A stretch of DNA of 64,000 bases from Verrucomicrobiia bacterium (GTDB lineage Bacteria > Chloroflexota > Dormibacteria > Aeolococcales > Bog-877). Under the pieces are notes generated by a model. It ran no database searches. It worked only from the letters and a program-made list of their open reading frames with translations, and was not told the origin of the DNA. Position 1 is the first letter of the stretch, and each line of letters begins with the position of its first letter. The translations under genes were made by a program, and so were the position numbers. The DNA is taken from contig DATKRN010000049.1 of the NCBI GenBank assembly GCA_035532155.1, forward strand, positions 7,102 to 71,101. Reading direction: 5' to 3'. This document shows, piece after piece, positions 32,141 to 47,990 of this stretch.

Positions 32141-32221
32141 TGCCCTCCACGGATGGCCCGGCGCGTCCGGGTCGGGAGCGGCGGTGCGCGGCGACGGGGC
32201 GCTCGCCCGTGCCCTGGCACG

Positions 32222-32262
32222 ACGTCCCTTCCCGGCCTCACTGGACCGGCTTCAAGGTGGTC
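32222..32262 (-). promoter_or_regulatory. Candidate PyrR-binding RNA element / attenuator in the pyrB leader
   Basis: The minus-strand leader contains GGUCCAGUGAGGCC flanked by CCUU...AAGG. This resembles the conserved PyrR binding-loop motif (UCCNGAGAGGCU). The pyr operon promoter must lie in the 32141..32333 intergenic region. Confidence 0.25.
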
Positions 32263-33582: not shown

Positions 33583-34233
33583 CTACCCCGACCGGGACGG
33601 CGCGGGCGCCCCGAACATCGCCCGGCAGCCGTCGAGGTTCTCGATGACGATGTCCGGGTGGGGCCGGGCGAGCCACTGGGCGCGGTCGAGACGGAGCTGG
33701 ACGGTGCGCGCGGGCGCCCCCCGGCGCAGCGTCCAGCTCTCGCCGTTGGGCGTGTAGCCGAGGGCGCGGGAGACCGCCAGTGAGGCGGGGTTGTCCGCGA
33801 ACGCGGCCGACGTGGCCGCCACCGCACCCAGCCCCTCGAACGCGAGATGGAGCACGGCAGCCCGCATCTCCCGACCGATGCCGCGCCTCTCGTGAGCGCG
33901 CCCCAGCCACGAGCCGGTCCCCACCGTGCCCAGCTCCGAGACGTGCCGGGCCATGTGGTCCTGGACCCCGACCGGCTCGCCGTCGAGGAACACGGCGGCG
34001 GCCAGCGCCCACGCGTCGGGCCTGCACTCGGCCCGCAGTCGCCACCACCACTGCAGGGCGTTGCGCTCGAGCTCGGTCACCGGCGCGTCGGTCCAGGGGA
34101 TCTCGAAGGGCATCACCTCGGGGTGGTGGATCCCGGCGGCCGCCAGCCGGGCCCGCGCGACGCCGTCGTCGTCGGTCGCAAGGCGCAGCGTGCGCCCTCG
34201 CAGGTTGAACAGAGGCCAGATCGCGTGTGCCAC
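33583..34233 (-). CDS. GNAT-family N-acetyltransferase
   Basis: 216 aa. GNAT motif A region (QDHMARHVSELGTVGTGSWLGRAHERRGIGREMRAAVLHLAFEGLG). Confidence 0.75.
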   Translation of the reverse strand: MAHAIWPLFNLRGRTLRLATDDDGVARARLAAAGIHHPEVMPFEIPWTDAPVTELERNALQWWWRLRAECRPDAWALAAAVFLDGEPVGVQDHMARHVSELGTVGTGSWLGRAHERRGIGREMRAAVLHLAFEGLGAVAATSAAFADNPASLAVSRALGYTPNGESWTLRRGAPARTVQLRLDRAQWLARPHPDIVIENLDGCRAMFGAPAPSRSG

Positions 34234-34296
34234 CCCGCCAGGGTACGGGCGGCGGCGACCGGCCCCCGGAGCCCGCGCCGGGGCGGGCCGGGGCGC

Positions 34297-35162
34297 TCAG
34301 GGGTGACGCCGCGGGGTCGCCGGCCGGCGCGATCCCAGCGCCGCCGCGCTCACCAGCGGGGCGGCGGCGAGCCGGCGACCCCCCCCCCACCGTGGCGACC
34401 ACCGCCAGGCCGACCCCGCGTACCCCGGCGGGCCATGGGTGGCGAACCGCTCCTGGAACACGGTGAGCCCGAGCAGGGAGCCGGCCGCGGGCTCGGCGAC
34501 CAGGGCCGCCGGCAGGGCGGCCGCCAGCTCGCCCGCCCGGTAGGCGCGCTGCTGCAGCAGGAACCCGGCCGCGCCCACCGCGACCAGGGCGTAGGGGGCG
34601 AAGGGGGCGAGCGCCCCGAGATGGCGCCCGGCGACCAGGGCGATGGTGGTCTTGGTGAGGGCGTCCGAGCCTCCCAGGGTGGTCCCGGCGCAGAGGGCGA
34701 CCCGCACCGCCCGGCATCCCTCAGGCCAGCGGGGGCCGAGCCGCACGGGCCACAGCGACGACCAGGGCGAGCGCCGCCAGCGCCGGCGCCCAGGCCGTCA
34801 GGCGAGGTCGCCGGCGTCCCCCCTCGGGGTGGGCCAGGATCAAGAACGCGGCCACCCCGCCGGCGGCGGCGATGGACCGCTCGCAGGAGCAGCGCGAAGA
34901 CCAGCGCGGTCGCCAGCACCGGCTCCACCACGGCGAGGCGCCCGATGCCCAGCTCGACCGCCTGGGCGCCGAACCCCGCCACCATCAGCAGGACCCCGAT
35001 CACCCAGGTCGGACGCCGCATCAGCCCGAGCACCAGCTGGGCAGAGGACCCGGACCGCTCCTCCAGCCCGTGGGCCACCCCCTGCTGGAGGACCGCGCCG
35101 GCCCCGATCCCAAGGGCCGCGACCGCGGCCAGCAGCACCGACCACGCGGTCACCCCGGTCAC
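34297..35162 (-). pseudogene. Small polytopic membrane protein (DMT/EamA-like). The reading frame is broken, or it is two overlapping small membrane-protein genes.
   Basis: A membrane-protein-like sequence is spread over three frames. Frame A (35162 down to about 34850) gives VTGVTAWSVLLAAVAALGIGAGAV...LATALVFALLLRAV. It shifts to GVAAFLILAHPEGGRRRPRLTAWAPALAALALVVAVA, ending at the TGA near 34714. A further ATG ORF (34746..34297) encodes ...TTIALVAGRHLGALAPFAPYALVAVGAAGFLLQQRAYRAGELAAALPAALVAEPAAGSLLGLTVFQERF. Confidence 0.35.
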
Positions 35163-35176
35163 GGACCCGCCCCGGC

Positions 35177-36539
35177 CTACTCCAGCAGTCGGAGCGCCAG
35201 CCGGCCCAGCGGGCCCCGGGCCCCACCACGGTCGTCGGCTGCCTGGAGCGCCCGCTGGGTGGCCCCGAGCACCATCGCCCGCAACGGCTCGGGCGGCAGC
35301 GGGGTGGGACGCCGGGTCACCAGCGGCAGCCGGACCCGCTCGGTGTCGCGGTCCAGCAGCAGGTCGGCACCCACGCGCCCCATCAGAGCCGACGGCGCCA
35401 CCCCGTGCCCGCTGGAGCCGACCGCGTAGGCGAGCCGCCTCCCCCGCAGCCAGCCCGCGATCGGCAGACAGCTGACGGTGGCCCCCACCGGGCCGCCCCA
35501 GCTTTGGCGCAGGCGCACATCGGCGAGCTGGGGGACGGTCTGCCGGACGCTCTGCTCCAGCCGGCCGAACACGGCGGGGTCGCGGTCGCGCGCGGGGTCC
35601 GGTCCGATCGCCGAGATCGGGGCGTCGCGCCCGCCCCAGAGGATCCGGCCGTCGGGCGTGGGGCGGTGGACGGGGGGCATCACCCGTCGGTCCTCGATCC
35701 CCATGCCCCCAGCCCAGCCGAGCCGCTCCCACTGCGCGGGCGTGAGCGGGTCGGTGAGCGTGATCGACGCACAGACCGTGAAGAGGACCCGCCGCAGCCG
35801 GGGGATGGCGTGGGCGTAGGCATTGGTCGCGAATCAGCCCGCGGGCGGCCGGGACGACGCCCCGCGGGGTCAGCGCCACCACGCCCTCAGGTCCCACCCG
35901 CACCTGCTCGACCGGGGAGCAATCGTGCACCGCCACGCCCCGGCGGTCAGCCGCGTCCGCCAGCCCGCGCACCAGGGCTGCCGGGTCCAGCAGCAGCGCC
36001 GCCTGCTCGACGTGGCCACCGCGGACCCCCGCCGCCGCCACCAGCTCCGGGCAGGCGGCCGCGGAGAGGGGGCGAAAGTGGTCGAGACCGAGTCGCTCGG
36101 CCGCCCGCAGGTCCTAGAGGATGCGGACGTCCTGCTCGGGCCCATTGGAGACGGTGAGCAGGCCGGGACGCGTCAGTTCAGCGGCGAGCCCCTCGGCGAG
36201 GCAGAACGCTTCGATCTCGGCCAGGGTCTCCACCATCTGGAGGGGGACCGCCTGCGCCGGTGCGGCCCCGAGCTTGCGAGCCAGATCGTGCAGGTTGCGG
36301 GCCATCATGGTCATGGCGAAGCCGCCATTGCAACCGCTGGCGCCGAACCCCACCGTGCTCTGCTCCAGCACGATCACCCGGCAGCCGGGGTCGGCCTCGA
36401 TCAGGCGGATGGCGGACCACAGCCCGGTGAGTCCGCCGCCGACGATCACCACGTCGCAGCGCCGGTCCCCCTCGAGCGCCGGCCGCAGGGGCGGGCGGGC
36501 GCGATCCAGCCACCAGCTGGGTCCCGGCCGGGCCGGCAC
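35177..36539 (-). pseudogene. FAD-dependent oxidoreductase (DAO family, glycine/D-amino-acid oxidase-like), inactivated by an in-frame TAG and at least one frameshift
   Basis: The N-terminus has the dinucleotide-binding motif DVVIVGGGLTGLWSAIRL and ends at TAG 36114..36116. The same frame continues with ...AAAGVRGGHVEQAALLLDPAALVRGLADAADRRGVAVHDCSPV...VVPAARGL. A TGA at 35834..35836 interrupts the downstream frame. The C-terminal third (FATNAYAHAIPRLRRV...GSSGHGVAPS...) is in a third frame. Confidence 0.7.
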
Positions 36540-36547
36540 CGGTCGGG

Positions 36548-37702
36548 TCAGCTGGCCTCGGCGACCGGGACCCGGGCGCCATCGGCCGCCGCCAGCGCCT
36601 GGTAGGCGCGACGCTCCGGCTCGTCCGCGCCGCTCACGCTGGCGGTGGTCACCCGGACGGTGAGGTAGGCGTCCCCCCCCGAATCCTGGGATCGGAGCCC
36701 GGGGATCCCCTTGCCGCGCAGCCGCAGCACCGTGCCGGCGGGGCAGTTCTCGGGGATGGTCACCTCGATCCGGCCGGTCGGCAGCTCGGCGGTGGCCGCC
36801 CCTCCCAGCACGGCTCGGTAGTCACGCACAGCGACATCGCCGTGGAGGTCGCGTCCCCGCACCTCGAAGCGCGGGTCGGGCTGAAGGTGCACCCGCAGCA
36901 GCAGGTGGCCCGCGGCGCCCCCGCGCTGGCCACCGCCGCCCTCACCGGCGATGCGGATCCGGGAGCCCGCGGCCACTCCCCGAGGGATCGTGACGCTGAG
37001 CGTGCGTTCGCGGGAGAGGCTGCCCCGACCGCCGCACGCGGGGCAGGGGGCCAGGCTCACCGTCACGGTTCCTCCCGGCGCCGGGGCATCGTCGGGCCGC
37101 GGCACCATGCCCCGGCCATCGCAGGTCGGGCAGGGCTCGTTGAGCCCGACCCGGATCGTGCGCCGCCCGCCCTGGATCGCCTCGGCCAGGCCGATCGTGA
37201 TGTCGCTGCTGGCATCGGTGCCGCGTGCAGGGGTGGGGGTCGCCGGCGAGCCGCCCCCGCGGGCGCGTCGCAGCAGCTCGTCGACCTCGAGCTCGCTGAG
37301 GGGGTCGGTGCTGGCACCCCGTCCCCCGAAGAAGGTCTCGAAGAAGTCGCTGAAGCCGCCGAAGCGGGAACGCCCGCGGGCACCCGCCCCGCCCGCCGCC
37401 GAGGCCGCCGCCCGCGCCGCCGCCGCCGCGCGGGCGGCCGCCTCCTGGGCCTGGCGCCGGAAGGCGTCGCTGTGCTCGAGCTGTTCCCAGTTGGCCCCGA
37501 GCTGGTCGTACTTGCGACGCTTGGCGGGGTCCTTCAAGACCTCGTACGCCTCGTTGACGCGCTTGAACCGCTCGGTCGCCTTGGGGTCCTTGTTGACGTC
37601 GGGGTGGAGCTGACGGGCCAGTCCGCGGTAGGCGGACTGCACCTCCTTCTGGCTGGCGGAGCGCGCCACCCCGAGCGTGGCGTAATAGTCGTGGAACTCC
37701 AC
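36548..37702 (-). CDS. DnaJ-family (J-domain) co-chaperone, CbpA/DnaJ-like with a degenerate zinc-finger region
   Basis: J domain [36 protein letters not shown] with HPD. Only two CxxCxGxG repeats ([16 protein letters not shown]), then a DnaJ C-terminal beta domain. It is not next to dnaK/grpE. Confidence 0.85.
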
Positions 37703-37752
37703 GCCCCCACCCTACCCCACCCACCCCGGCGGGAAACGACGGCAGGCCCGCA

Positions 37753-38985
37753 TCAGCTGGCCCCGAGCTGGTCCCGCAGGTCGCGGACCAGCTGCGCCGC
37801 GTGCGGCAGCAGCGCGCCGGCGGGGTCGAGACACGGCCCCTCCAGCACCACCCGGGCCAGCTCGTGGCCGGGCCGGGCCCGACCGCGGACGATGAGCCCG
37901 ACCTCGCCGGGCCGGGGCCCGTCGATCGCCAGAGGAGCCGCCCGCTCCCATCCACCCGCCGCCGACAGGCGTCCGGTGCCGCTGGCCAGGCCGGGGCGCA
38001 CCGTCTGGGTCCCGAGGTTGTGGAGGATGAGCTGCGACCAGTGGCACTCCAGCCGCGACGGCAGCGCCGGATCCCCCGCTCCCACGAACACCCCCAGGTG
38101 GCGGGCGAGCAGGGAGGGCTCGCCGCGGTCGCGGGCCGACAGGTTCCAGAGCGGCACGGAGGCGACCAGGCGCGGGTTCACTTCGATGCAGAAGACGGTG
38201 TCATCCGCCGCCACCACCAGGTCGGCGCCGAAGATGCCGCGGTGGCCCTCGCGCTGGAGCCAGGCGGCGGCCCGCGCCGCCACCGACAGGACCGCCGCCT
38301 CGCCCCGGATCGGGGCGCCGAAGTCGTTGCCGCAGGAGCCCAGCGGGTAGGGTGTGCACTCGGCCAGCCCGGTGAGCTGGCGACAGGGCACCCCCAGGGC
38401 GACCGCGCCGTCGCCCACCACCCCGGTCACCGTCACCGGGTCGCCGCGGATCCAGCTGCTGACCCGGCAGCTGCGACCGGCGTAGGTGGCCAGCAGGGCG
38501 GTGAGGTCCTGCTCGGTGTCGGCTCGGCGGGTGTGGCGACCGCTGTAGCCGCTGGCGAGCTGGACCACCCACGGCCCCCGGAGGCGCAGGGCCTGCTCCG
38601 TCAGGGCGGGGGCGGCGACCCCTGTGACCGCCGGGGGGATGGGCAGCCACGCGCCCGGCGCGGTGCGGGTGAAGTGCACCTTGTTCTCCAGCCGCCGGGC
38701 GATCGCCGCGCCCGCGTTGGCGAGAGGCACTCCCACCTGGCGGGCGCACTCGGCGATCCGCATCGACGGCTTCCAGACCACGAGCTGGCTGGCGCTCGCG
38801 GCCAGCCGGCGGCGGACGTCCTCACGCTCCAGCAGGGCCAGCGCTGAGATCGCGAGCGGAGGCCCCGCCTGGTCGACGCGGCCGGGCGGGTCGCCGACGA
38901 TCCCGCACGCGTCGGCGCAGAGCACCGCGAGCTGGCTGCCCAGGGCGGGGACGGGGTCGGTCCCCACGTAGACCGGACCCATCAT
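37753..38985 (-). CDS. ATP-grasp domain protein with an about 100-aa N-terminal extension
   Basis: ATP-grasp core WVVQLASGYSGRHTRRADTEQDL...GVVGDGAVALGVPCRQL...IFGADLVVAADDTVFCIEVNPRL. It matches neither RimK/LysX nor Ddl exactly. 410 aa. Confidence 0.65.
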   Translation of the reverse strand: MMGPVYVGTDPVPALGSQLAVLCADACGIVGDPPGRVDQAGPPLAISALALLEREDVRRRLAASASQLVVWKPSMRIAECARQVGVPLANAGAAIARRLENKVHFTRTAPGAWLPIPPAVTGVAAPALTEQALRLRGPWVVQLASGYSGRHTRRADTEQDLTALLATYAGRSCRVSSWIRGDPVTVTGVVGDGAVALGVPCRQLTGLAECTPYPLGSCGNDFGAPIRGEAAVLSVAARAAAWLQREGHRGIFGADLVVAADDTVFCIEVNPRLVASVPLWNLSARDRGEPSLLARHLGVFVGAGDPALPSRLECHWSQLILHNLGTQTVRPGLASGTGRLSAAGGWERAAPLAIDGPRPGEVGLIVRGRARPGHELARVVLEGPCLDPAGALLPHAAQLVRDLRDQLGAS

Positions 38986-39983
38986 CGTGGAGAGAGCCCC
39001 ATCTGGCCCAGCTGGGCATCCAGCTCGGCCTCGGTCTCCACCCAGGTGAGGCCGTCGATCCGCGCCGGATCGGGGGCGGGCGCCCGGTCGAGCTGGGCCA
39101 GCTCGCCGGTGAGCAGCGCCACCACGCGCCGGCCCGCGAGATCGGGCGCTGCGCAGCCGATCGCGGTGAGAACGGCCACCCCCTCCCAGGAGGTGCCCAC
39201 CCCGAAGCCGGCGGCGAGGTCTTGGACCTCGCCCATCCGGGCCCGGTCCACCTGCCAGGCCCGGCCCCCGCTGGCGAAGACCGCCCGCCGCACCTCACCG
39301 GAGCGGCGGCTGCGACCCACCCCCAGCTCCCCGACTCCGCGCGCCGCGGGTTCCGCCGTGACCACATGGAGGGCGGGGGCGGGCACGGCTCCGGCGGCGA
39401 ATCCCTGCGCGATCCCGACCGCGGTGGCCCCGCTGCTCTGGTAGACGAAGACGGCGTCCGGCGGTCGCTCCGGCCCGAGCGCCGCCACGAGCTCAGCGGC
39501 GATGCCACGGTAGGCGATGGGCGCCAGCGGATGGACCGAGGGTCGCAGGTCCTCGCAGCCGAACACCTGGACCGCCCGGCGCAGCAGGGCGATCGGCGTC
39601 GGAGTCACGAGCAGCGTCCCCGGGAAGGCCGCCAGCGCCCTCAGCTTGACCCCAGGGGTCCGGGGCGAGACCAGCACCAGCACCGGGACGTCGGCGGCGC
39701 GGGCGTACGCGGCCGCGGCGATGGCGGCGTTGCCCGACGAGGAGAGGGCGCCCGCACGTCCGCTCCGCCGCAGCCCGGCGGATTGGAGGGAGAGCGCCCG
39801 CGCCTTGTGGCTGCCGGTGGGGCTCACGTCCTCGCGCTTCAGCCAGAGGTCGGGGACGCCCAGCGCCGCCCCCAGCCGAGGAGCCGCGACCACCGGGGTG
39901 TGCCCCTCGCCGAGCGACACCGGCGCCAGCCCGGCTAGACTCGGCCCGAAGAGTGCCCGGTGGTCCCACTGGCCAGAGCCGAC
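38982..39983 (-). CDS. PLP-dependent fold-type II enzyme (threonine synthase / cysteine synthase-like, PALP family)
   Basis: HTPVVAAPRLGAALGVPDLWLKREDVSPTGSHKARALSLQ (PLP-lysine motif), SSGNAAIAAAAYA, and a Gly-rich loop SSGATAVGIAQGF. The upstream part of the 440-aa ORF-track entry is junk and would overlap the lysW-like gene. The start was set near 39983. Confidence 0.6.
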   Translation of the reverse strand, partial: VGSGQWDHRALFGPSLAGLAPVSLGEGHTPVVAAPRLGAALGVPDLWLKREDVSPTGSHKARALSLQSAGLRRSGRAGALSSSGNAAIAAAAYARAADVPVLVLVSPRTPGVKLRALAAFPGTLLVTPTPIALLRRAVQVFGCEDLRPSVHPLAPIAYRGIAAELVAALGPERPPDAVFVYQSSGATAVGIAQGFAAGAVPAPALHVVTAEPAARGVGELGVGRSRRSGEVRRAVFASGGRAWQVDRARMGEVQDLAAGFGVGTSWEGVAVLTAIGCAAPDLAGRRVVALLTGELAQLDRAPAPDPARIDGLTWVETEAELDAQLGQMGLSPR

Positions 39984-40022
39984 CCGGGCCGGCTGGACGC
40001 CCGAGCTCACGGGAGTGCCCCG

Positions 40023-40193
40023 ATGCCGTCGCCCCCGACCCCGGTCGCCTGCCCTGACTGCGGGGTGGCGGTGGCGGTGCCCGGCGATTCCGAGGTGGGC
40101 GAGGTGGTGGAGTGCCCCGGCTGCGGGGCCCCCTTGGAGGTGGTGGCCCTGACGCCGCTCACCCTGGTGCCCTTCGACGAGGAGGAGAAGTAG
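40023..40193 (+). CDS. LysW-like zinc-ribbon protein, an alpha-aminoadipate/LysW amino-group-carrier-protein family homolog. 56 aa, ending in ...FDEEEK.
   Basis: MPSPPTPVACPDCGVAVAVPGDSEVGEVVECPGCGAPLEVVALTPLTLVPFDEEEK aligns position by position with Thermus LysW ([50 protein letters not shown]). Both have two CxxCG knuckles, GExV, CGAxLEVVxLxPLxLxP and an acidic tail. The internal ATG at 40023 was used. It is on the opposite strand to all its neighbours. Confidence 0.6.
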   Translation: MPSPPTPVACPDCGVAVAVPGDSEVGEVVECPGCGAPLEVVALTPLTLVPFDEEEK

Positions 40194-41721
40194 CCGCGGG
40201 GACAATCGCCCGGACCGCGGCCCGGAAGCCCCGTCCCCCGGGGTCGGATCCGTAGAAGGCGTGGAACGCTCCCGGGCAGGCCGGCGAGAACAGGACGGCC
40301 TCACCGGGACGGGCCGCCTCGGCCGCGAGCGCGACCGCCTGGTCGAGGCCTGTGACCCGGTGCACCCGCGCGGCGCTCCCGGCGGCCTGGAGCGCCCCCG
40401 CGATCCGCTCGGAGCCCGCCCCGGGAAGCAGGACGATCGCGCGGACGGCGCTGGGGACCAGCACCACCAGCTCGTCCCAGGCCAGCTGCTTGTCGTCGCC
40501 CCCGCAGATGAGCACGCAGCGGCGCCCGAGAGCGAGCACCGCCGCCACCGTGGACTGGGGCGTGGTCGAGTTCAGGTCGTCGACCCAGTCCACCCCGCCG
40601 GCCTGCCAGACCAGCTGGATGCGGTGGCGCAGCGGCTGAAAGTCGGCCAGCGCGTCCGCCGCCGTGTCCGCCAGTCGGCCCATCGCCGCCACCGTCGCCA
40701 CCGCCGCTCGGACGTTCTGCCGGTTGTGCGCGCCCAGCAGTCCGCTGGGCCCCGGCCCGACCCTCTCCGCCCACACCCCGTGGCGGCGGACGACCACCTC
40801 TTCGTCGATCTCGAAGGCCCCGTCGAAGCCCTCGAGCCCGGTCTCGCTGGCGGCGAAGCGCCACTCCTCGGCCCCACGGGCGGCCGGGCACCGCGCCCGG
40901 CTGATGGGGTCATCCGCGTTGCGCACGGCCACCCGGTTGCCCGGGAGTGAGAAGAGGCGCCGCTTGGCGTCGACGTAGCCGTCCAGGCCGTTGTGCTCGT
41001 CGAGATGGTTGGGGGTGAGGTTGGTCAGGCAGGCAACCTCGGGGGCGCTCGCCATCTGGAGTAGCTGGCGGTTGCTGATCTCCAGCACCAGCACATCGGT
41101 GGCCGCGCCCGATGCCACCTCGACCAGACACGGGGTCTGGTGACGGTCGTTGCCCGCCGACCGGACCACCCCCGAGCGGGGCCCGGCGGACAGCAGCCGG
41201 GCCACCAGGGCGGCGGTGGTCGACTTGCCGTGGCTGCCGCTCACCCCGACCACAGGACCCCTGGCGCAGTCGAGGTACGCCTGCGCCAGGGAGTAGAACG
41301 GACGGCCCGCGGCGCGCAGCGCCTCCAGCGGCCGATTGCGCGGGTTGAGGAACCATGCCTGGGTGGGCACCACCACCGCCGCCTCGTCGAGGCCGGCGAG
41401 ATAGCGGTCGCCGAGGCGAAGGTCCCGCAGCCCAGTGGCGAGCGCCTCCCACCGCTGCGCCCGGGTCCGGGGAGCGAGCCCGGCGTGCGCGCGCGCGAAA
41501 GCGGTCGCGACCTCATCCGCGGGGGCCAGGTCGTGGCCCACCAGCTGCGAGCAACCGCAGGCCAGGCAGAAGCGCGCCATCTCGGCCCCCTCGAGGCTCG
41601 CCACCCCGACGATGTGCAGGGGCCGGTCACGATAGGGAGCCAGGGCGCGCGGCAAGGCCGCGGCCAGCCGGCCCGCCTCGGACGGGGCCGGCGGGAGTGC
41701 AAAGGGCAGCATCGCCCGCAT
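40159..41721 (-). CDS. MurD-like Mur ligase family protein with a divergent N-terminal domain. It is outside any dcw cluster.
   Basis: Central ATPase domain GVSGSHGKSTTAALVARLL...VLEISNRQL...NLTPNHLDEH. C-terminal domain DDLNSTTPQST...LFSPACPGAFHAFYGSDPGGRGF, which parallels E. coli MurD NDSKATN...[22 protein letters not shown]. The N-terminal Rossmann motif is degenerate (HIVGVASLEGAEMARFCLACG). Confidence 0.75.
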   Translation of the reverse strand: MRAMLPFALPPAPSEAGRLAAALPRALAPYRDRPLHIVGVASLEGAEMARFCLACGCSQLVGHDLAPADEVATAFARAHAGLAPRTRAQRWEALATGLRDLRLGDRYLAGLDEAAVVVPTQAWFLNPRNRPLEALRAAGRPFYSLAQAYLDCARGPVVGVSGSHGKSTTAALVARLLSAGPRSGVVRSAGNDRHQTPCLVEVASGAATDVLVLEISNRQLLQMASAPEVACLTNLTPNHLDEHNGLDGYVDAKRRLFSLPGNRVAVRNADDPISRARCPAARGAEEWRFAASETGLEGFDGAFEIDEEVVVRRHGVWAERVGPGPSGLLGAHNRQNVRAAVATVAAMGRLADTAADALADFQPLRHRIQLVWQAGGVDWVDDLNSTTPQSTVAAVLALGRRCVLICGGDDKQLAWDELVVLVPSAVRAIVLLPGAGSERIAGALQAAGSAARVHRVTGLDQAVALAAEAARPGEAVLFSPACPGAFHAFYGSDPGGRGFRAAVRAIVPAATSPPRRRAPG

Positions 41722-41755
41722 CGTACGGCGGCCGGGGCGACCCGCCGCTCACCGG

Positions 41756-42640
41756 TCAGGCCGCTGCCGTGGAGGTGGGGCGGCCGATCCGGCGCCAGCC
41801 CAGCACCTGGTAGCGCGCCTCGAAGGTCTCCCGCGGCTCGACCCGCACCCGCCCGGTCTCGCTGCAGGCGTGGACCACCGAGCCGGCGTCGAGGGCGAGC
41901 GCGACATGGCTGAGCCGCCGCCGTCGCGAGATCGCGCCCGCCAGGTCGCCGGCGGCGACGTTGGGGCCGGCCACTCGCTCCCCGCACCGGCGCTGGCCCC
42001 GACTGTTGCGGGGGAGGCAGAGTCCGACCCCGGCGAAGGCGCGCCAGACCAGACCGGAGCAGTCGTACCCGGCTCCCCCGGTCGCGCCCCACACATAGGG
42101 ACGGCCCCGCTGGGCGAGCACAAAGGCACAGAGCGCGTCCCACGACCAGATCCCCGCCGATCTCCCCTCCCTCACGGGGGCGAGCCCGAGATCGGCGGGG
42201 CTGTGGGGGACGCCGAGCCTAAAGGACGCCCCCCGGTCGACCCAGCCGAGGGCGGCCCCGGGGGCGCGCACCAGGCAGGCCCCACCCCGCACCGCCAGCA
42301 GGAGCGCGGGCGGGTCGCCCGCCAGCAGCTCGGTGGCGCGCTCCCCGCCCCGACCGTCCCCGCCGGGGTGGTCGCGCCACACGTCGAGGGGTGCTCCCAG
42401 GGGCCAGAGGCCGCGCCGGGGACGCCGCTCCGCGAGCACGGTCAGGCGGACGTCGATCGCGGGCCACCGGGATCCGAGCCGCGCCCGCACCAGGTCCGCC
42501 TGGGCGCTCACGCCCACCACCCCGCTCACCCCCCCGGGCTGGACCCGGACGTCGAAGATCGGGGTGGGATAACGCTCCGCGACCGCCAGCCGGACCGCGC
42601 GCAGCTCCGCCGCCACCGCGGCGCGGTCAGCGGCGTCCAT
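41756..42640 (-). CDS. NlpC/P60 (C40) family peptidase with an uncharacterised N-terminal domain
   Basis: Catalytic Cys context RGRPYVWGATGGAGYDCSGLVWRAFAGVGLCLPRNSRGQ and a downstream His (LSHVALALDAGSVVHA). The start was set to the Met overlapping the stop of the upstream gene. Confidence 0.7.
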   Translation of the reverse strand: MDAADRAAVAAELRAVRLAVAERYPTPIFDVRVQPGGVSGVVGVSAQADLVRARLGSRWPAIDVRLTVLAERRPRRGLWPLGAPLDVWRDHPGGDGRGGERATELLAGDPPALLLAVRGGACLVRAPGAALGWVDRGASFRLGVPHSPADLGLAPVREGRSAGIWSWDALCAFVLAQRGRPYVWGATGGAGYDCSGLVWRAFAGVGLCLPRNSRGQRRCGERVAGPNVAAGDLAGAISRRRRLSHVALALDAGSVVHACSETGRVRVEPRETFEARYQVLGWRRIGRPTSTAAA

Positions 42641-43521
42641 CACGCGCGGCGGCGCCACCAGGGCCGGGTCCCGGCGGACGGGACGGCCGGGCCGCGCCGC
42701 TCCCGGGGTCCAGGGGCCAGCTCGACCCCGTCGGTCACGAGCACGATCGGGGAGAGCGGGCTCTCGGCCTCCCGAAACGCTCGCGCGACCGCGCGCGTGA
42801 AGCGGTCGGCTCCGGCCTGCGGGCCGAGCGCGGCCAGGACCAGCCCCCGGTCGGGCGCCGCCAGCCGGCCGTGACCGCCGCCGCGCCGGGCCAGGATGCG
42901 GCGGAGCTCAGGAAGCATCAGCAAGCTGGAGGCGAAGAGCCGGTCCTCTCCGAACTGCCAGGGTCCGGTCCCCTGCGTCCGCTCCAGGGCCGAGAGCCAG
43001 CCCGCGAAGCGGGCGGCGGTGTTGTGGTCGGCGCGGGTGCGCAGCTCGTCGGCCCCCAGCCCGACGCCTTCGGCCTCGGGGACCGAGACGCCTCGGAGCG
43101 CCTCGCCCGGCAGCTCTTCGGCGACGAAGGCGACCAGGGACGGGGCGAGCGGGTGGCAGAGCAGCTCGCGGGCGCGCTCGAAGGCCACCACGCTCCTACT
43201 GGTACGCACGCACCAGAGCAGCGCGCCGGGGTCGGGTCCCGTCCCGCCCGCCGAGGCGGGCGCCCGCTGCAGCCGCGCCGCCGCCGCCCCCACGAAGCGG
43301 GCGATCTCGGCGGGGGCGGAGGCGCCAGGCTGATGGGCGTCGACGTACAAGGTGGTGAGCGCCAGTGAGACCGCCCCCGAGGACGGGCCCGTGCGGTGGG
43401 CGCGCACCGCGAACGCGTCGGGGTCGGGCTGGAAGCTCCAGTCCGGATAGCGAGCACGCAGCTGGGTGGCGAGCCGGGTGGCGAACGCGGCACGGTCCGC
43501 GAACGCGATCCCGGTGTCCAC
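42640..43521 (-). CDS. Hypothetical protein
   Basis: 293-aa ORF. It is tightly packed between the VWA protein and the NlpC/P60 gene (overlapping stops and starts). No family recognised. Confidence 0.45.
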   Translation of the reverse strand: MDTGIAFADRAAFATRLATQLRARYPDWSFQPDPDAFAVRAHRTGPSSGAVSLALTTLYVDAHQPGASAPAEIARFVGAAAARLQRAPASAGGTGPDPGALLWCVRTSRSVVAFERARELLCHPLAPSLVAFVAEELPGEALRGVSVPEAEGVGLGADELRTRADHNTAARFAGWLSALERTQGTGPWQFGEDRLFASSLLMLPELRRILARRGGGHGRLAAPDRGLVLAALGPQAGADRFTRAVARAFREAESPLSPIVLVTDGVELAPGPRERRGPAVPSAGTRPWWRRRA

Positions 43522-43541
43522 GGTCGCCGCCGGGACCGCGG

Positions 43542-45539
43542 TCAGGCGGCCCGACCACGACCGGCGACATAGTCGAGCAGGACGTAGTCGCCGAGGTGGT
43601 CGGGGCTGATGAAGAAGGCGCGGCCCCGGTTCTGCCTTGTCATCTGCCGGACGAAGCGCACCAGCTGGGGGTTGCTCTCCAGCATGAAGGTGTTGATCAC
43701 GATCCCGTCGCGGGTGCAGTCCCGCACCGCCGCCAGGGTGCGCTGGAACGTCTCGGGAAGGGGAGGATAGTAGAACACCGCCTGCGTCCCCTCCATGTGG
43801 GCGGTGGGCTCCCCGTCACTGACGATGATCACCTGCCGGTTGCTGCTGGGGTGGCGGGCCAGCAGGCGGCGCGCCAGCATCAGGCCGTGCTGCAGGTTGG
43901 TGCCATAGACGTACTCGTTGTAGGAGAGCTGGGCCAAGCTCCCCGGCGCGATCTCGCGCGCGTAGTCGGAGAACCCCACCACGTAGAGCTGATCGCGAGG
44001 GTACTGGGTGCGGATCAGCGCGTCCAGCGCGAGCGCCACCTTCTTGGCGGCGTAGAAGTAGCCCCGCAGCGGCATGCTCCGACTCATGTCGAGCATCAGC
44101 ACCGTGCTGGAGCGGGTCGTGGGCTCGGCGGCGTGGACCAGGAAGTCCGAGGGGTCCAGCCGGAGCGGCACCCCGGCGCCGGCTCGGCGCACGCTGGCGA
44201 GCAGGGTCTCGCCCAGGTGGACATCGAAGGGCTCGCCGAAGCGATAGGGTCGGGTGTCGTCCTGGCGCTCGCTGCCGACCCCGAGGCCCCGGGTGCCGTG
44301 CTGTCCGAAGCGATCGGCGGCGAGCCGCCGGAAGATGTCCGCCAGCGCCTGCTGCCCGATCCGCCGCACCCCTCGCGGGGTGAGCTCGAGCCCGGCCTCG
44401 CCGCGGTGCAGGTACCCCGAACGCTCCAGCTGACGGGTGAGCGCCTGGACCCGGTCGAGCGCGCGGACGGCGTCATCGCCGAGCACGGCTCGGAGCCGCT
44501 CGCGGGTCGACTCGCCCACCGGTTCGCCGCGGTAGACGCCCTGGAGCGCGCGCTCCAGCTCCTCCAGCCCCTCCAGCTCCCCCATCAACTGGAGCGCATC
44601 CCCGAACGGGAGCGACTCGTCGCCAAAGAAGCGGTAGCGCGGGGAGTCCTGCTCTCCGCCTCCGAGCTGGCGCAGCAGTCGGCCCAGCTCGCTCAGCGCG
44701 GCCTGGAGCCCGGGATCGTCGAGGCCGGCGGCGAGCAGCCCCTCCAGCTCGCGCCGCGCCTCCGGCGCGAGCGACCGCAGCAGGGACCCCATCTGCCGCA
44801 TCTGGGCCTGGAGGGTGGCCAGGAACTCCTCGAAACTGGCGGGGTGGTTGGGGAAGTACTCCCCGAAGCGCTGAAGGAACGCCGCGTACTCGGGGTCCTC
44901 CCCGGCGGCGTGGGCGCTCAGCATCCGGCTCAGCGCCTCCACCATCTGGCGCAGCCGACTGCGCTCGTCCGGCCCCATCGACCGCATCGCCTCCCCCACC
45001 TCGCGTAGGTGCGCGCCCAGCATCTGCCGGCGCAGGTCGTCGACCAGCTCCGAGAACGCCCGCGCCGCGGCGGGATCGAGGAATTCGTAGGCCTGCAGGG
45101 CCCGGATCGCCGAGCCCGGCTCGGGCGGGAGCGCATCCAGCTGCTGCGCCCTGCGCTCCGCCATGCGCGCGCGGATCCGGTCGGCGGCAGGGTCGGACGG
45201 GGGCGCCGCACTGGCGCGGCGTCCCGCCTCGATGCCGCGACGCTCCTGCTGCACGATGCGATCGATCCGCTCGCGGATATCGCTGAAGAGCGCCTCCAGA
45301 TTGAAGCGTTCGAGCTCGCGCTGACGGCGCCGGCGGAGCTGGTCGAGCAGGCCCTCCAGACCGGGAACGCGTCGCCCCCGCGGGCCGCGGAGCCCCTGCC
45401 CCAGCAGCCGGCGCAGCGCCGAGTCGAGGTCCCAGCCGTGGAAGACATCCTCGGCGAGGCGCGCGAACTCGTCCTCGGCGTCGACGCCGACCTCCTCCTG
45501 GGTGCCGTCCCAGCTGGAGTAGCGGTGCCGCACCGCCAT
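43542..45539 (-). CDS. VWA (von Willebrand factor A) domain protein, CoxE/DUF444-like, partner of the upstream AAA ATPase
   Basis: 665 aa with a long helical N-terminal region. The C-terminal VWA has a MIDAS (VLMLDMSRSM...GTNLQHGL...IIVSDGEPTA). Confidence 0.75.
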   Translation of the reverse strand: MAVRHRYSSWDGTQEEVGVDAEDEFARLAEDVFHGWDLDSALRRLLGQGLRGPRGRRVPGLEGLLDQLRRRRQRELERFNLEALFSDIRERIDRIVQQERRGIEAGRRASAAPPSDPAADRIRARMAERRAQQLDALPPEPGSAIRALQAYEFLDPAAARAFSELVDDLRRQMLGAHLREVGEAMRSMGPDERSRLRQMVEALSRMLSAHAAGEDPEYAAFLQRFGEYFPNHPASFEEFLATLQAQMRQMGSLLRSLAPEARRELEGLLAAGLDDPGLQAALSELGRLLRQLGGGEQDSPRYRFFGDESLPFGDALQLMGELEGLEELERALQGVYRGEPVGESTRERLRAVLGDDAVRALDRVQALTRQLERSGYLHRGEAGLELTPRGVRRIGQQALADIFRRLAADRFGQHGTRGLGVGSERQDDTRPYRFGEPFDVHLGETLLASVRRAGAGVPLRLDPSDFLVHAAEPTTRSSTVLMLDMSRSMPLRGYFYAAKKVALALDALIRTQYPRDQLYVVGFSDYAREIAPGSLAQLSYNEYVYGTNLQHGLMLARRLLARHPSSNRQVIIVSDGEPTAHMEGTQAVFYYPPLPETFQRTLAAVRDCTRDGIVINTFMLESNPQLVRFVRQMTRQNRGRAFFISPDHLGDYVLLDYVAGRGRAA

Positions 45540-45542
45540 GGC

Positions 45543-46985
45543 TCAGCCCCCGTAGACGGTGGTGCCGTCGACCTGGGTCTTGTTCAGCCGCTTACTGACG
45601 TGGAGGCCCTCCAGGACAAACTCCAGTGCCGCCGCCACGGTGGCCGGGGTGACCGGCTCCTCCAGCCCGGCCAGGACGCGCTCCATCCCCCCCAGCTCGC
45701 GGCCGGCGGCCGTGTAACGGTCCAGCTCGACCGCGTCTCCCACCTCCAGGCGAAGACCCTGCTCGAAGCGCGCGACCAGCGCCGTGAACTCCTGCAGCGC
45801 GAAGCGGCGGCGGAAGACGTTGCCGCAGGCGCTCCGGAGGAGCTTGGGCAGCAGCATGTGGTCGTCGCTCTCCTCGAATGCCTCCAGCTCCAGCTTGCCC
45901 CAGGTGGACGCGGCGAGCGCGGCGAGGTCGGAGATGCGCGGTACCGCCTCCACCTCCTGGAGGCGGATCGCACGCCGGACCGCCGAGGCGCACAGGCTCT
46001 CGTAATTGGCGATGGACAGCCGCACCGACACCCCGGAGCGCTGGTTCACCTGGGGGCTGCGGCGGGCCAGGTGGGTCACCTCGGCGACCAACTCGCGCAT
46101 GTAGGCGGGGACGTGCAGCCGCACCGGGAGGTCGTCGAAGGAGGCCGCCTCGGCCTCGATGATCGCCACCTCCTCCTCGACCCGACGGGGATAGTGAGTG
46201 CGCACCTGAGCCCCGAAGCGGTCCTTGAGGGGGGTGATGATGCGCCCGCGATTGGTGTAGTCCTCGGGATTGGCAGTGGCGATCACCACCACGTCGAGCG
46301 GGAGCCGCACCCGGAACCCGCGGATCTGGACGTCGCGCTCCTCCATGCAGGTGAGCAGGCCGACCTGGATCCTCTCGGCCAGGTCGGGCAGCTCGTTGAT
46401 GGCGAAGAGACCGCGATTCACCCGCGGCAGCAGTCCGTAGTGGATCGTCAGCTCATCGGAGAGGTAGCGGCCCTCGGCGACGCGGATGGGGTCGACCTCA
46501 CCGATGAGGTCCGCGATCGACGTGTCAGGGGTGGCCAGCTTCTCCCCGAAGCGCTGGTCCGGGCCGATCCACGCGATCGGGGTCGCGTCGCCCTGCTCCG
46601 CCACCCGGTCGCGACCATATCGGCTGATCGGCTGGTAGGGATGGTCGTTGACCTCGCTGCCGGCGATGATCGGCAGCTGCTCGTCGAGCAGCCCCACCAG
46701 CTGGCGGATCAGCCGCGATTTGGCCTGGCCCCGCTCCCCCAGCAGGATGATGTCCTGGCCGGCGAGGATCGCGTGCTCCACCTGGGGGACGACGGTGTCG
46801 TCGTAGCCCACGATCCCGGGGAAGAGCGGGGCGCCCTGGCGCAGGCGGCGCACCAGATTGTCTCGCAGCTCGGCCCGGACGGTGCGCTGCCGGTACTCGC
46901 TGCCGCGGAGCTCGCCGATGGTGGAGGGCAGGGTCATGGGGGAAGCGAGGGTCGGATCCGAGGGGCGCCAGGCCCGCCCGGTCAT
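45543..46985 (-). CDS. AAA+ ATPase, ChlI/BchI-like (Mg-chelatase-family fold)
   Basis: Walker A ILLGERGQAKSRLIRQL, Walker B/sensor region GLFAINELPDL...VVVIATANPEDYTNRGRIITPLKDRF. The start is uncertain (Met candidates at 46985 and 46940). The ORF-track start at 47045 overlaps the upstream pseudogene. Confidence 0.7.
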   Translation of the reverse strand: MTGRAWRPSDPTLASPMTLPSTIGELRGSEYRQRTVRAELRDNLVRRLRQGAPLFPGIVGYDDTVVPQVEHAILAGQDIILLGERGQAKSRLIRQLVGLLDEQLPIIAGSEVNDHPYQPISRYGRDRVAEQGDATPIAWIGPDQRFGEKLATPDTSIADLIGEVDPIRVAEGRYLSDELTIHYGLLPRVNRGLFAINELPDLAERIQVGLLTCMEERDVQIRGFRVRLPLDVVVIATANPEDYTNRGRIITPLKDRFGAQVRTHYPRRVEEEVAIIEAEAASFDDLPVRLHVPAYMRELVAEVTHLARRSPQVNQRSGVSVRLSIANYESLCASAVRRAIRLQEVEAVPRISDLAALAASTWGKLELEAFEESDDHMLLPKLLRSACGNVFRRRFALQEFTALVARFEQGLRLEVGDAVELDRYTAAGRELGGMERVLAGLEEPVTPATVAAALEFVLEGLHVSKRLNKTQVDGTTVYGG

Positions 46986-47039
46986 GATAGCCGCCGCTAG
47001 CCGCCGCCCTTGTCCGCAATCGGGCCGGCCCGCGGCTCG

Positions 47040-47990
47040 GCCCAAGGTCAGCCCACGGTGCGCAGGCGCGGCAGCCGGCCGGGCAGGATCGCCAGGCGGG
47101 CGGGGAGATCAGCAGGATGACGTCGCGGAATCCCGCCTGCACGAACTCCTCGACGGCGGCCATCGCCCGGCCGGCATCGCCGGAGATCGGGAGCTGGACC
47201 GCCCGGCGGATGCGGCCCGGGTCGCGGCCGATCGCCTCGCGGTGGCGGTCGAGGACCCGAGATAGCTGTCTCAGCTCGGCCGCGACCTCGCCCCGCAGGG
47301 TGCCGCACCGGACGTCGGCATGCTCGGCGACCACGCGCAGGCCGCGGCGCGCACCCAGGCTCCCCAGCCGCCGGGGGCGGGCGCGGGCGCTGCACGGGTT
47401 TGGGGTCGCACCGGGCGCCCTGCAGGCGCCCATGGCGCCCCACATGAGTCGACACCGGCTGGCTCCCCAGCAGCGGGATCAGCCGGAGCGCCTCGTCGAG
47501 GTGCTCGATCGGCTCCCGTAGCGGCGTCAGCAGGAGGCCGTCCAGGGCGTCGACCAGGAGGTCGCCGCCGGCGCCGAGGCCCATGTCGAGACAGCCCTGG
47601 CTGAGATGGTAGACGGTGGCCGCCACCGTGACGAGCCCAGCCGGGTGACGCGGGCAGCGACCGGTGACCCGGGCGCCGATGCGAACCCGGCGGGTCGCCT
47701 GCGCCATGGAACCCAGCGGGGTCCACGCCTCGAGCACGTCGCCGCGGCGCTCGGCCCCAGCGGGACGACGTGGTCGAAGACCCAGCCGCCATCGCAGGCG
47801 ACCTCGTCGGCCAGCGCCCACGCCTCCGGCACGCGGTCGACGGGGGTGTGCTGCTGGGACGGTTTCACGCCGAAGGTGGGGGCGGGCACGGTCTCCTCCG
47901 CGGCGCTGGGCGCGGCCCGACCGGTCGCCCAGAAAGCGCACTGTCCCTGATCGTCAGCATGGCTGCTTGTACGGCGGGAGGTAGGATCGG
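47040..47990 (-). pseudogene. Luciferase-like monooxygenase (LLM) family oxidoreductase, probably F420-dependent, broken into three frames
   Basis: N-terminus TFGVKP...PEAWALADEVACDGGWVFDHVVPLGP is in frame 1 (47527..48000). The middle VRIGARVTGRCPRHPAGLVTVAATVYHLSQGCLDMGLGAGGDLL...LREPIEHLDEALRLI is in frame 2 (47048..47941). The C-terminal part ...RGEVAAELRQLSRVLDRHREAIGRDPGRIRRAVQL...VEEFVQAGFRDVILLI is in frame 3. That implies at least two frameshifts. Confidence 0.55.

Follow-up and report, generated by a model that had tools for sequence, protein, structure and literature searches.

The K-tailed gene and its neighbors

The 64,000 nucleotide stretch of contig DATKRN010000049.1 (GenBank assembly GCA_035532155.1) analyzed here, called the window below, carries on its plus strand a small gene whose product, MPSPPTPVACPDCGVAVAVPGDSEVGEVVECPGCGAPLEVVALTPLTLVPFDEEEK (ATG at 40023, TAG at 40191-40193), resembles the LysW carrier proteins but ends in lysine instead of their canonical glutamate. 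Sequence comparisons indicate that this Lys-terminated tail is the defining feature of a distinct and widespread branch of LysW-fold proteins, and we consider it probable that the K-tailed protein, as we call it, is the carrier of a peptidoglycan-linked module made up of amidoligases, a pyridoxal phosphate (PLP) enzyme and a peptidase. The features of the locus are collected in Table 1. Along the minus strand the module reads C40 peptidase, MurD-like ligase, K-tailed gene (on the opposite strand), ThrC-like PLP enzyme and ATP-grasp ligase, and it is flanked by pyrimidine genes, a muramoyl-alanine amidase, DnaJ, MoxR/VWA genes, RecJ and others. The K-tailed gene is the sole plus-strand gene within a minus-strand run of about 13.5 kb (33583..47108); its isolation in such an array had been noted in the first-pass annotation of the window, and the 35-nt convergent overlap with the MurD-like gene reported there is also correct. 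At its other end 12 nt separate its ATG from the divergent GTG of the PLP gene, a gap filled by the GGGAG motif. Scans for promoters, terminators and Rfam families around the K-tailed gene gave no match.

Table 1. Features of the K-tailed gene and its module in the window
Feature	Coordinates	Strand	Evidence or remark
K-tailed LysW-like gene (probable carrier), 56 aa + TAG	40023..40193	+	open reading frame, Pfam, PDB, fold
Ribosome-binding motif GGGAG, 7 nt before the ATG of the K-tailed gene	40011..40015	+	same motif and spacing in locus L001
Zinc-ribbon core CPDC...CPGC (Cys10, Cys13, Cys31, Cys34)	40050..40124	+	Pfam PF21344
Tail codons F-D-E-E-E-K and TAG stop	40173..40193	+	conserved -Glu-Lys-COOH end
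35-nt convergent overlap, 3' ends of K-tailed and MurD-like genes	40159..40193	.	same 35-nt overlap in locus L001
ThrC-like fold-type II PLP enzyme, 342 aa, GTG start at 40010	38982..40010	-	adjoins the K-tailed gene
ATP-grasp ligase (PRK06524 / YheCD-like; PurK / biotin-carboxylase-like fold)	37753..38985	-	overlaps the PLP gene stop by 4 nt
MurD-like Mur ligase, 520 aa	40159..41721	-	catalytic residues intact; N-domain and amino-acid pocket remodelled
C40 (NlpC/P60) cysteine peptidase	41756..42658	-	DCSGL motif and two His conserved

The terminal lysine is conserved

The final codons of the K-tailed gene are GAC GAG GAG GAG AAG, followed by TAG. Such an end might be an artefact: the 3' end could be missequenced or misassembled, or the open reading frame (ORF) could be spurious and antisense to real genes; the contig does contain a frameshifted gene for a DAO-family oxidoreductase (35177..36539), and high-GC DNA yields many spurious ORFs. 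The gene itself, however, has the GC content by codon position (0.80/0.57/0.89) that is typical for genes in this window, whose overall GC content is 74.6%. When the share of synonymous codon differences among five orthologues was calculated for all six frames, it was highest in the K-tailed frame (0.38), compared with 0.35 in the antisense frame that shares its third positions and 0.08-0.13 in the others. Both patterns favor the K-tailed frame, as do the strong Pfam, PDB and fold matches to LysW given below. In addition, assemblies made independently and representing several phyla repeat this tail and its stop position while using different codons and stops, and for this reason a sequencing error is excluded. 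The comparative data thus refute the artefact, which we give practically no chance.

Relatives were gathered by searching 1.8 billion representative proteins exhaustively with HMMER and then by a word-indexed search. Among the 212 small zinc-ribbon relatives 149 end in lysine, and 26 have the canonical -DWGE/Q end. Glutamate precedes the lysine at position -1 in 147 of the 149 K-tailed relatives and stands at -2 and at -3 in 141 each. The K-tailed proteins have 21-22 residues after the last cysteine, as opposed to 26 or more in 25 of the 26 EDWGE-type proteins. When the cores were compared without their tails, the nearest neighbor was also K-tailed for 139 of 148 K-tail sequences. Across orthologues the tail is kept as FDEEEK or FEEEEK despite different codons and TAG, TAA or TGA stops, and the ...E-K-stop end is found in five Dormibacterota-type loci and in more than 70 others, with all three stop codons in use. 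In L001, from another metagenome-assembled genome of Candidatus Dormiibacterota, a 75%-identical orthologue has the same tail and the same gene order; tail and order are also the same in three further Dormibacterota-type loci.

The first-pass annotation had described a LysW-like protein that lacks the C-terminal Glu/EDWGE acceptor, has a shortened tail and retains the zinc-ribbon core, and in all three respects it is borne out by the FDEEEK-TAG end, the residue counts above and the four intact cysteines that match PF21344. Its suggestion that a terminal lysine implies a different chemistry or role is supported by the data below. Its other option, a sequencing error, is refuted by the presence of the K-tail in 149 of 149 members of the subfamily and at 61 of 61 loci that were found independently through another gene (below); likewise, the one-base correction that was to restore a C-terminal glutamate fails, since the tail recurs with different codons and stops and needs no such fix.

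The relatives also include tandem two- and three-domain LysW-like zinc-ribbon proteins (P0004, P0006, P0008, P0009 and others). P0009, of 103 aa, ends in ...IEEEK, and many tandem forms of 130-190 aa have basic or other tails.

A LysW fold outside lysine and arginine biosynthesis

The K-tailed protein matches the Pfam family Zn_ribbon_LysW (PF21344) at 51.1 bits against a cut-off of 27, and its four zinc-ribbon cysteines are invariant in two alignments. The subfamily profile matches Thermus thermophilus LysW (3wwl) with E=2.5e-13 and also the solved LysW proteins of Thermococcus and Sulfolobus. An AlphaFold2 (AF2) model of the protein has a pLDDT of 79.5, and its six best Foldseek matches are all LysW chains (TM 0.72-0.75); pLDDT drops in the final block, residues 51-56, as might be expected of a flexible tail. 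The protein nevertheless falls below both NCBIfam cut-offs for LysW (TIGR01206, 34.2 vs 53.2 bits; NF041070, 45.2 vs 75 bits).

LysX/ArgX, LysZ, LysY, LysJ and LysK were all absent from the set of window genes examined and from the gene calls of the first related loci to be inspected. By contrast, at the control locus L021 a relative ending in ...EEEDWGE adjoins LysX (with RimK and LysX_preATP_grasp domains), LysY, LysZ, LysJ and homocitrate synthase/aconitase genes. A role in lysine or arginine biosynthesis was rejected, since no LysX/Z/Y/J/K genes were found among the nearby genes examined, whereas the EDWGE control does have LysX, LysY, LysZ and LysJ. The LysW/ArgW frame implied by the first-pass annotation thus finds no support, either in the neighborhood or in the NCBIfam scores. 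The window proteins carry generic public names: 'lysine biosynthesis protein LysW', 'Mur ligase family protein', 'C40 family peptidase', 'PLP-dependent lyase/thiolase' and 'ATP-grasp domain-containing protein'. The first of these names is probably wrong for K-tailed genes wherever it is used, Patescibacteria included. Patescibacteria are described in the literature as having limited biosynthetic capacity.

The LysW/ArgW carriers (known from Thermus, Sulfolobus, Thermococcus and Streptomyces secondary metabolism) and the K-tailed protein have in common the homologous zinc-ribbon domain, a length of about 55 aa, a strongly acidic composition, a flexible acidic C-terminal tail, and an ATP-grasp ligase and a hydrolase encoded alongside. 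They differ in the tail itself, which is -EDWGE in LysW/ArgW and -E-E-K, about 5 residues shorter, in the K-tailed protein. The partners also differ; those of LysW are LysX/Z/Y/J/K, while those of the K-tailed protein are a PurK/biotin-carboxylase-like ATP-grasp enzyme, a ThrC-like PLP enzyme, a C40 peptidase and a MurD-like ligase. The setting is amino-acid biosynthesis for the former and the division and cell-wall (dcw) cluster for the latter. Finally, the probable reactive group is an amine in the K-tailed protein, as opposed to the carboxyl of LysW. The LysW fold would thus have been reused with the opposite reactive end and a wholly different enzyme set.

A conserved module in three phyla

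The same five genes occur in the same order, with the K-tailed gene inverted, in other Dormibacterota (L001, L013, L014 and L016, besides the window), and the module is also present in Patescibacteria of the Gottesmanbacteria/Microgenomates type. In the Caldilineae (Chloroflexota) a single fused protein of 855-890 aa comprises the C40 peptidase and the MurD-like ligase; it is followed, with all genes co-directional, by a K-tailed gene ending in LFEEEEK, the PLP enzyme and the ATP-grasp ligase. Locus L005 has the order K-tailed gene, C40, MurD-like, PLP; a 412-aa ORF of this locus was considered as the missing ATP-grasp enzyme and rejected, because it does not align. The minimal constant set is the K-tailed gene, the PLP enzyme and the ATP-grasp ligase, usually with the C40 peptidase, and the catalytic residues are preserved in all four module enzymes. 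According to a published rooted tree of bacteria, the Candidate Phyla Radiation (CPR) is sister to Chloroflexota-Dormibacterota, so that the three module-bearing phyla form one clade, and the distribution of the module therefore fits an old and largely vertical inheritance.

The labels of the deposited sequences are inconsistent: the window proteins are labelled 'Verrucomicrobiae bacterium' and those of L014 'Micrarchaeia archaeon', and relatives and gene order place both with Candidatus Dormiibacterota. In two Caldilineae loci a gene of the class II aldolase/adducin family directly follows the ATP-grasp gene (L017, 9660..10484; L018, 9537..10199), and amidinotransferase/ADI-family and AlaX-like tRNA_SAD genes are found nearby; the module may have gained these genes specifically in this lineage.

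The association was also approached from the opposite direction, by a metagenome scan anchored on the ATP-grasp protein instead of the small gene. Scan patterns were taken from the conserved FGLD and NARLTAS stretches of a seven-sequence alignment, ORFs were classified with purpose-built hidden Markov models, and 80 loci were obtained. In each of the 61 loci that had enough upstream DNA the PLP gene has as its neighbor a LysW-like gene ending in -EK, which is encoded on the opposite strand in every case (61/61); the 61 genes comprise 48 distinct sequences. The K-tailed gene is thus kept antisense within a co-directional array, head-to-head with the PLP gene, in Dormibacterota as well as in these Patescibacteria loci. 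Its 3' overlap with the MurD-like gene measures 26-50 nt in 16 of the 19 Patescibacteria loci of type B (defined below), and in Caldilineae and L005 the gene is co-directional with the module.

This arrangement bears on whether the K-tailed protein is a carrier at all. It might instead be a non-covalent zinc-ribbon adaptor or regulator that docks on the PLP, ATP-grasp or MurD-like enzymes, with the -EEEK tail as a pseudo-substrate or switch, and its conserved antisense placement might add control at the RNA level. The opposite-strand position in the Dormibacterota and in all 61 Patescibacteria loci, overlapping the MurD-like 3' end, could be read in this way, as could the lack of the known LysW pathway enzymes; moreover, LysW is held to its partner enzymes by electrostatic contacts. 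Control by antisense cannot be a requirement, however, because the gene is co-directional in Chloroflexota and L005. In addition, the absolute conservation of the last two residues in these loci, together with a flexible tail, is what would be expected of a reactive end, and two carboxylate-amine ligases with a peptidase are a typical load-and-release set. We regard an adaptor as distinctly unlikely and return to the carrier reading in what follows.

The module often lies at the murD position of cell-wall clusters

The loci of the scan have two architectures. In architecture B (19 loci) the module stands alone and includes the MurD-like ligase, as in the window. In architecture A (56 loci, and also L007 and L019) it lies inside the dcw division/cell-wall cluster, typically in the order MurE-MurC-MurA-MurF-MraY-C40-K-tailed protein-PLP-ATPgrasp-FtsW-MurG-FtsA-FtsZ, where it sits in the usual murD slot. 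No MurD or MurD-like ORF was found within the locus DNA of the 56 architecture A loci. In three loci (L068, L101 and L092) the module lies between murC and murF, and the mraY-ftsW interval is empty. In several module-bearing dcw clusters whose locus DNA has neither MurD nor MurF, MurC scores below the MurC cut-off and also matches Mpl. These findings point to a tie between the module and peptidoglycan-precursor synthesis at or near the MurD (second-residue) step.

Two further observations on these clusters were made. In eight loci (L074, L080, L081, L083, L084, L090, L095 and L097) the dcw cluster DNA contains neither MurD nor MurF, and MraY directly follows MurA; such MurF-less Patescibacteria clusters imply either that Mur ligase genes are dispersed in these genomes or that precursor synthesis departs further from the usual pathway than had been supposed. 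In L007 (13286..14062) and L019 (7942..8730) a gene of 258-262 aa with weak Pfam matches to ATE_C and GNAT lies between murE and murC. We read it as Fem-like, and it suggests a tRNA-dependent branch on the stem peptide.

The partner enzymes

The PLP enzyme aligns end to end with threonine synthases (E=3e-30), and its more distant solved relatives are serine dehydratase, Asp and Ser racemases, CysK and SbnA. The phosphate-binding Arg of ThrC is not conserved in it; another Arg, two residues before a conserved Ser, is invariant. The ATP-grasp ligase matches ATP-grasp_3 alone in Pfam, and PRK06524 'biotin carboxylase' matches below the NCBIfam cut-off. A PDB sequence search with it gave no match at E<0.01. 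Its AF2 model (pLDDT 95.5) has its nearest structural matches in PurK, biotin carboxylase and PurD, and not in LysX/RimK; these generic fold matches revealed no substrate. Unlike the LysX of control locus L021, the ligase carries no RimK or LysX_preATP_grasp domain, and it has a weak match to an archaeal Ddl-like pseudomurein protein. The C40 peptidase matches Pfam NLPC_P60 at 62 bits, its C200, H251 and H263 are invariant, and no obvious signal peptide was seen by eye. The 215-241 aa protein encoded upstream of the ligase in Patescibacteria is a divergent C40 enzyme with DCSGL (hhalign probability 79%, Pfam E=0.003-0.1). Enzymes of the C40 family cut γ-D-glutamyl-diamino-acid bonds, that is, γ-D-Glu-Lys or γ-D-Glu-diaminopimelate (DAP) bonds.

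The best PDB matches of the MurD-like ligase are MurD structures (E=2e-33). It scores 197.2 bits against the TIGR01087 equivalog cut-off of 211.95 and aligns only from model position 93; its relatives in L003 and L005 score 186 and 218 bits, the latter above the cut-off. Residues K115 (P-loop), E157, N178, H183, carbamylated K198, N271, R302 and D317 are conserved in the window protein and eight aligned relatives. T321 and K348 (E. coli MurD numbering), which bind the α-carboxylate of D-Glu in the E. coli enzyme, are also retained. Elsewhere the ligase has changed. D182 is replaced by N, and F161 by R, a new conserved Arg near the acyl site; DSKATN of MurD has become D[LIVM][NKA][SC]T[TS]P; and the SPACASLD..F loop of MurD, which binds the D-Glu side chain in E. 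coli, has become an aromatic-rich SPAC-P-G/F-x-F. With A414P, L416F and a replacement of K319 the pocket partly resembles that of the L-Glu ligase MurD2. The N-terminal domain has motifs of its own, HIVG..EG..HD..HxG..YL..QxW (in comparison with a provisional E. coli N-terminal sequence).

MurD2 and MurL of Xanthomonas and Micromonospora provide an ATP-driven alternative D-Glu route that operates beside a MurD paralogue (PMC8788868). In that work K319T lets E. coli MurD accept L-Glu, and E197 and R358 were shown to set chirality in MurD2 (PMC8788868). Like that system, the K-tailed module has a divergent MurD paralogue beside accessory genes that replace the usual MurI and MurD arrangement, would spend ATP on a D-residue, and shares the A414P/L416F-type changes, K319 being replaced in the MurD-like ligase. 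It differs in having no MurL, but a K-tailed protein, a PLP enzyme, an ATP-grasp ligase and a C40 peptidase instead; E197 and R358 of MurD2 are not copied, the MurD-like ligase having N (D in L005) and K there; its N-domain is remodelled, unlike that of MurD2; and the taxa are Patescibacteria, Chloroflexota and Dormibacterota in place of Xanthomonas and Micromonospora. A second likeness is to cyanophycin synthetase, in which ATP-grasp and Mur-ligase modules likewise act together on a C-terminal acidic/basic peptide end, and the Mur ligases of module loci have weak NCBIfam matches to it. Here, however, the enzymes are separate proteins and not one polymerase, a PLP enzyme and a zinc-ribbon carrier candidate are present, and there is no sign of a polymer; the MurD-like ligase is far nearer to MurD (197 bits) than to CphA (18 bits).

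A proposed load-modify-release scheme

If the K-tailed protein is a carrier, the enzymes encoded with it suggest how it may work. The ATP-grasp ligase would load an amino acid, most economically L-Glu by its γ-carboxyl, onto the ε-amine of the terminal lysine. Attachment to this amine was among the options raised in the first-pass annotation, and it suits the partner enzymes. Because the sole modifying enzyme of the module is PLP-dependent and needs a free α-amine, the substrate would be held by a carboxyl, on an amine of the carrier, and this requirement would be the reason for the switch from a terminal glutamate to an invariant terminal lysine. Such a tether leaves the α-amine free, and the PLP enzyme could then epimerize the amino acid to the D-form or carry out another α/β transformation. 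The C40 peptidase would release the product and regenerate the carrier, and the MurD or MurD-like ligase would use the product, either after release or while still carrier-bound. This would invert the logic of LysW, in that a terminal amine tethers carboxyl groups where the terminal carboxyl of LysW tethers amino groups. Given the murD slot, the MurD-like neighbor, the C40::MurD-like fusion and the bond preference of C40 enzymes, the supply of D-Glu is the most economical product. We favor the complete scheme with D-Glu supply at the MurD step as a tentative working model, one that could easily prove wrong. The combined claim that an amino acid tethered by its carboxyl to a Lys-terminated carrier undergoes PLP-catalyzed inversion or modification, that the C40 peptidase releases the product, and that the ATP-grasp ligase, PLP enzyme and carrier have entirely displaced murD from the dcw cluster of many Patescibacteria is, to us, doubtful.

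The Mycobacterium cysteine pathway CysO-CysM-Mec offers a parallel, since it too has a small carrier with a reactive C-terminus, an adjacent fold-type II PLP enzyme, an ATP-dependent activator and a releasing peptidase. It differs in that CysO has a ubiquitin fold and a Gly-Gly-thiocarboxylate end, is activated by E1-like adenylation and is served by a JAMM metalloprotease, and in that the product is cysteine.

Several points weigh against the scheme. The PLP enzyme is closest to threonine synthase and not to a racemase, and we know of no fold-type II glutamate epimerase. The ATP-grasp ligase resembles PurK, biotin carboxylase and PurD instead of a known protein-modifying ligase. The N-terminal domain of true MurD binds UDP-N-acetylmuramic acid (UDP-MurNAc), whereas in five members of the MurD-like family Pfam gave no relevant domain match at E<=5 for the N-terminal 134-167 residues, which carry motifs of their own, so that UDP-MurNAc-L-Ala may not be the acyl substrate. 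None of the 56 loci embedded in dcw clusters has a MurD-like gene in the vicinity; either MurD is encoded elsewhere or the scheme is incomplete. MurF is likewise missing from some of the MurD-less dcw clusters, and a gene that a cluster lacks may still be present in the genome. Finally, what the loci display directly is gene association, and substrate, attachment atom and product are all things that we infer from it.

The remodelled N-domain of the ligase fits a different reading, in which the terminal lysine is itself the cargo and the protein is a genetically pre-loaded amino-group carrier that holds lysine by its α-amine on the last glutamate. The PLP and/or ATP-grasp enzymes would modify the free ε-amine, for example by an SbnA-like aminoacrylate alkylation that yields a DAP-like diamino-dicarboxylate; the C40 peptidase would clip off the modified lysine; and the MurD-like ligase (or the ATP-grasp ligase where the former is absent) would re-add lysine to the -EEE-COOH end. 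An invariant lysine preceded by a nearly invariant glutamate is consistent with this. So is a MurD-like enzyme whose N-domain has no UDP-binding signature, which keeps T321 and K348, and which has an aromatic pocket and an Arg for F161, as would suit carrier-EEE-COOH plus L-Lys. A hydrolase and a ligase that act on the same bond would explain the C40::MurD-like fusion, and SbnA and CysK-type β-replacement enzymes are among the relatives of the PLP enzyme. The product would be, on the other hand, an amino acid not known from peptidoglycan, the placement in the murD slot goes unexplained, selectivity for the ε-amine can be achieved by an enzyme without a carrier, and the dcw-embedded loci would have an unloader but no proposed reloader. 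We consider this reading unlikely. A cycle of this kind has a counterpart in tubulin, in which a papain-like cysteine peptidase also acts and a gene-encoded terminal residue can be removed and added back. In tubulin detyrosination/tyrosination (vasohibin and TTL), and in the glutamylation of ribosomal protein S6 by RimK, a ligase of ATP-grasp fold works on the last residue of an acidic -EE-X tail; this is an analogy only, since these systems serve eukaryotic cytoskeletal regulation and the modification of a ribosomal protein and, unlike the K-tailed module, have no PLP enzyme, Mur ligase or cell-wall setting.

The clusters without MurD and MurF suggest another alternative, namely that the tail mimics the -Glu-Lys-COOH of UDP-MurNAc-tripeptide and serves as a scaffold on which two ligases assemble a peptide building block, such as D-Ala or D-Ala-D-Ala on the Lys α-carboxylate, or a dipeptide of the L-Ala-D-Glu type. 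The PLP enzyme would supply the D-amino acid, the C40 peptidase would cut between Glu and Lys, and a Mur ligase would add the fragment to the nucleotide precursor. A PLP enzyme paired with an ATP-grasp ligase does parallel Alr and Ddl, and no Ddl was seen within the dcw cluster DNA examined; the weak match of the ATP-grasp ligase to the pseudomurein protein, the γ-D-Glu-Lys/DAP specificity generally known for C40 enzymes, the absence of both MurD and MurF from the locus DNA of several module-bearing dcw clusters, and the low-scoring, Mpl-matching MurC of those clusters can be read in the same way. The Glu-Lys bond of the tail is α-linked and of L-Glu, however, not γ-D-Glu; the protein would lose its lysine in each cycle unless reloaded; and many of the clusters keep MurF. 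We judge a scaffold of this kind quite unlikely. A related candidate, the tail as a consumable Glu-Lys dipeptide donor, was rejected, because one protein per wall subunit is too costly and both linkage and chirality are wrong.

The lysine might also be a removable cap. A carboxypeptidase, perhaps the C40 enzyme, would expose a LysW-like glutamate, and the substrate amine would then be bound to its γ-carboxyl. The glutamate run before the lysine does resemble the acidic tail of LysW, C-terminal processing is known for Pup, ubiquitin and some ThiS/MoaD proteins, and a peptidase belongs to the module. A mere cap, however, need not be an invariant lysine in 149 of 149 proteins, a substrate whose amine is blocked on the γ-carboxyl could not bind PLP in the sole modifying enzyme, and the module has no LysX/RimK-type ligase, the ATP-grasp fold being nearest to PurK and biotin carboxylase. 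We hold a cap to be very unlikely.

The proposed load-modify-release scheme, if true, would add a third way of serving the D-Glu step to the two represented by MurI plus MurD and MurD2 plus MurL, and the K-tailed protein would be the first 'carboxyl-group carrier protein'. In the searchable literature we found no description of a Lys-terminated LysW or of this gene set, and no paper connecting LysW to Mur ligases, to C40 peptidases or to the dcw cluster. The K-tail branch points to an unrecognized carrier-protein step in wall-precursor synthesis, and it is a serious possibility that the entire system represents a peptidoglycan-precursor pathway of a new kind. The module lies in the most conserved cell-wall/division cluster of a very large and poorly understood branch of bacteria, often at the murD position, and may mark an unrecognized, lineage-specific peptidoglycan-precursor step. 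Should that be the case, the module would have implications for wall construction in ultra-small episymbionts, for the common ancestry of CPR, Chloroflexota and Dormibacterota, and for narrow-spectrum targets.

Other observations in the window

The frameshifted DAO-family gene mentioned above (an FAD oxidoreductase, minus strand, 35177..36539) is split between frames and is either a pseudogene or the result of an assembly indel. Its N-terminal piece at 36114..36539 corresponds to positions 1-96 of Pfam DAO and its C-terminal piece at 35177..35833 to positions 201-353, and the middle part was not found in an open frame. Farther upstream in window coordinates, a single minus-strand ORF of 1613 aa (24678..29519) fuses CarA (GATase) and CarB, the subunits of carbamoyl-phosphate synthase, and a dihydroorotase-like gene (29206..30609) and an aspartate carbamoyltransferase gene (31181..32251) adjoin this fusion.

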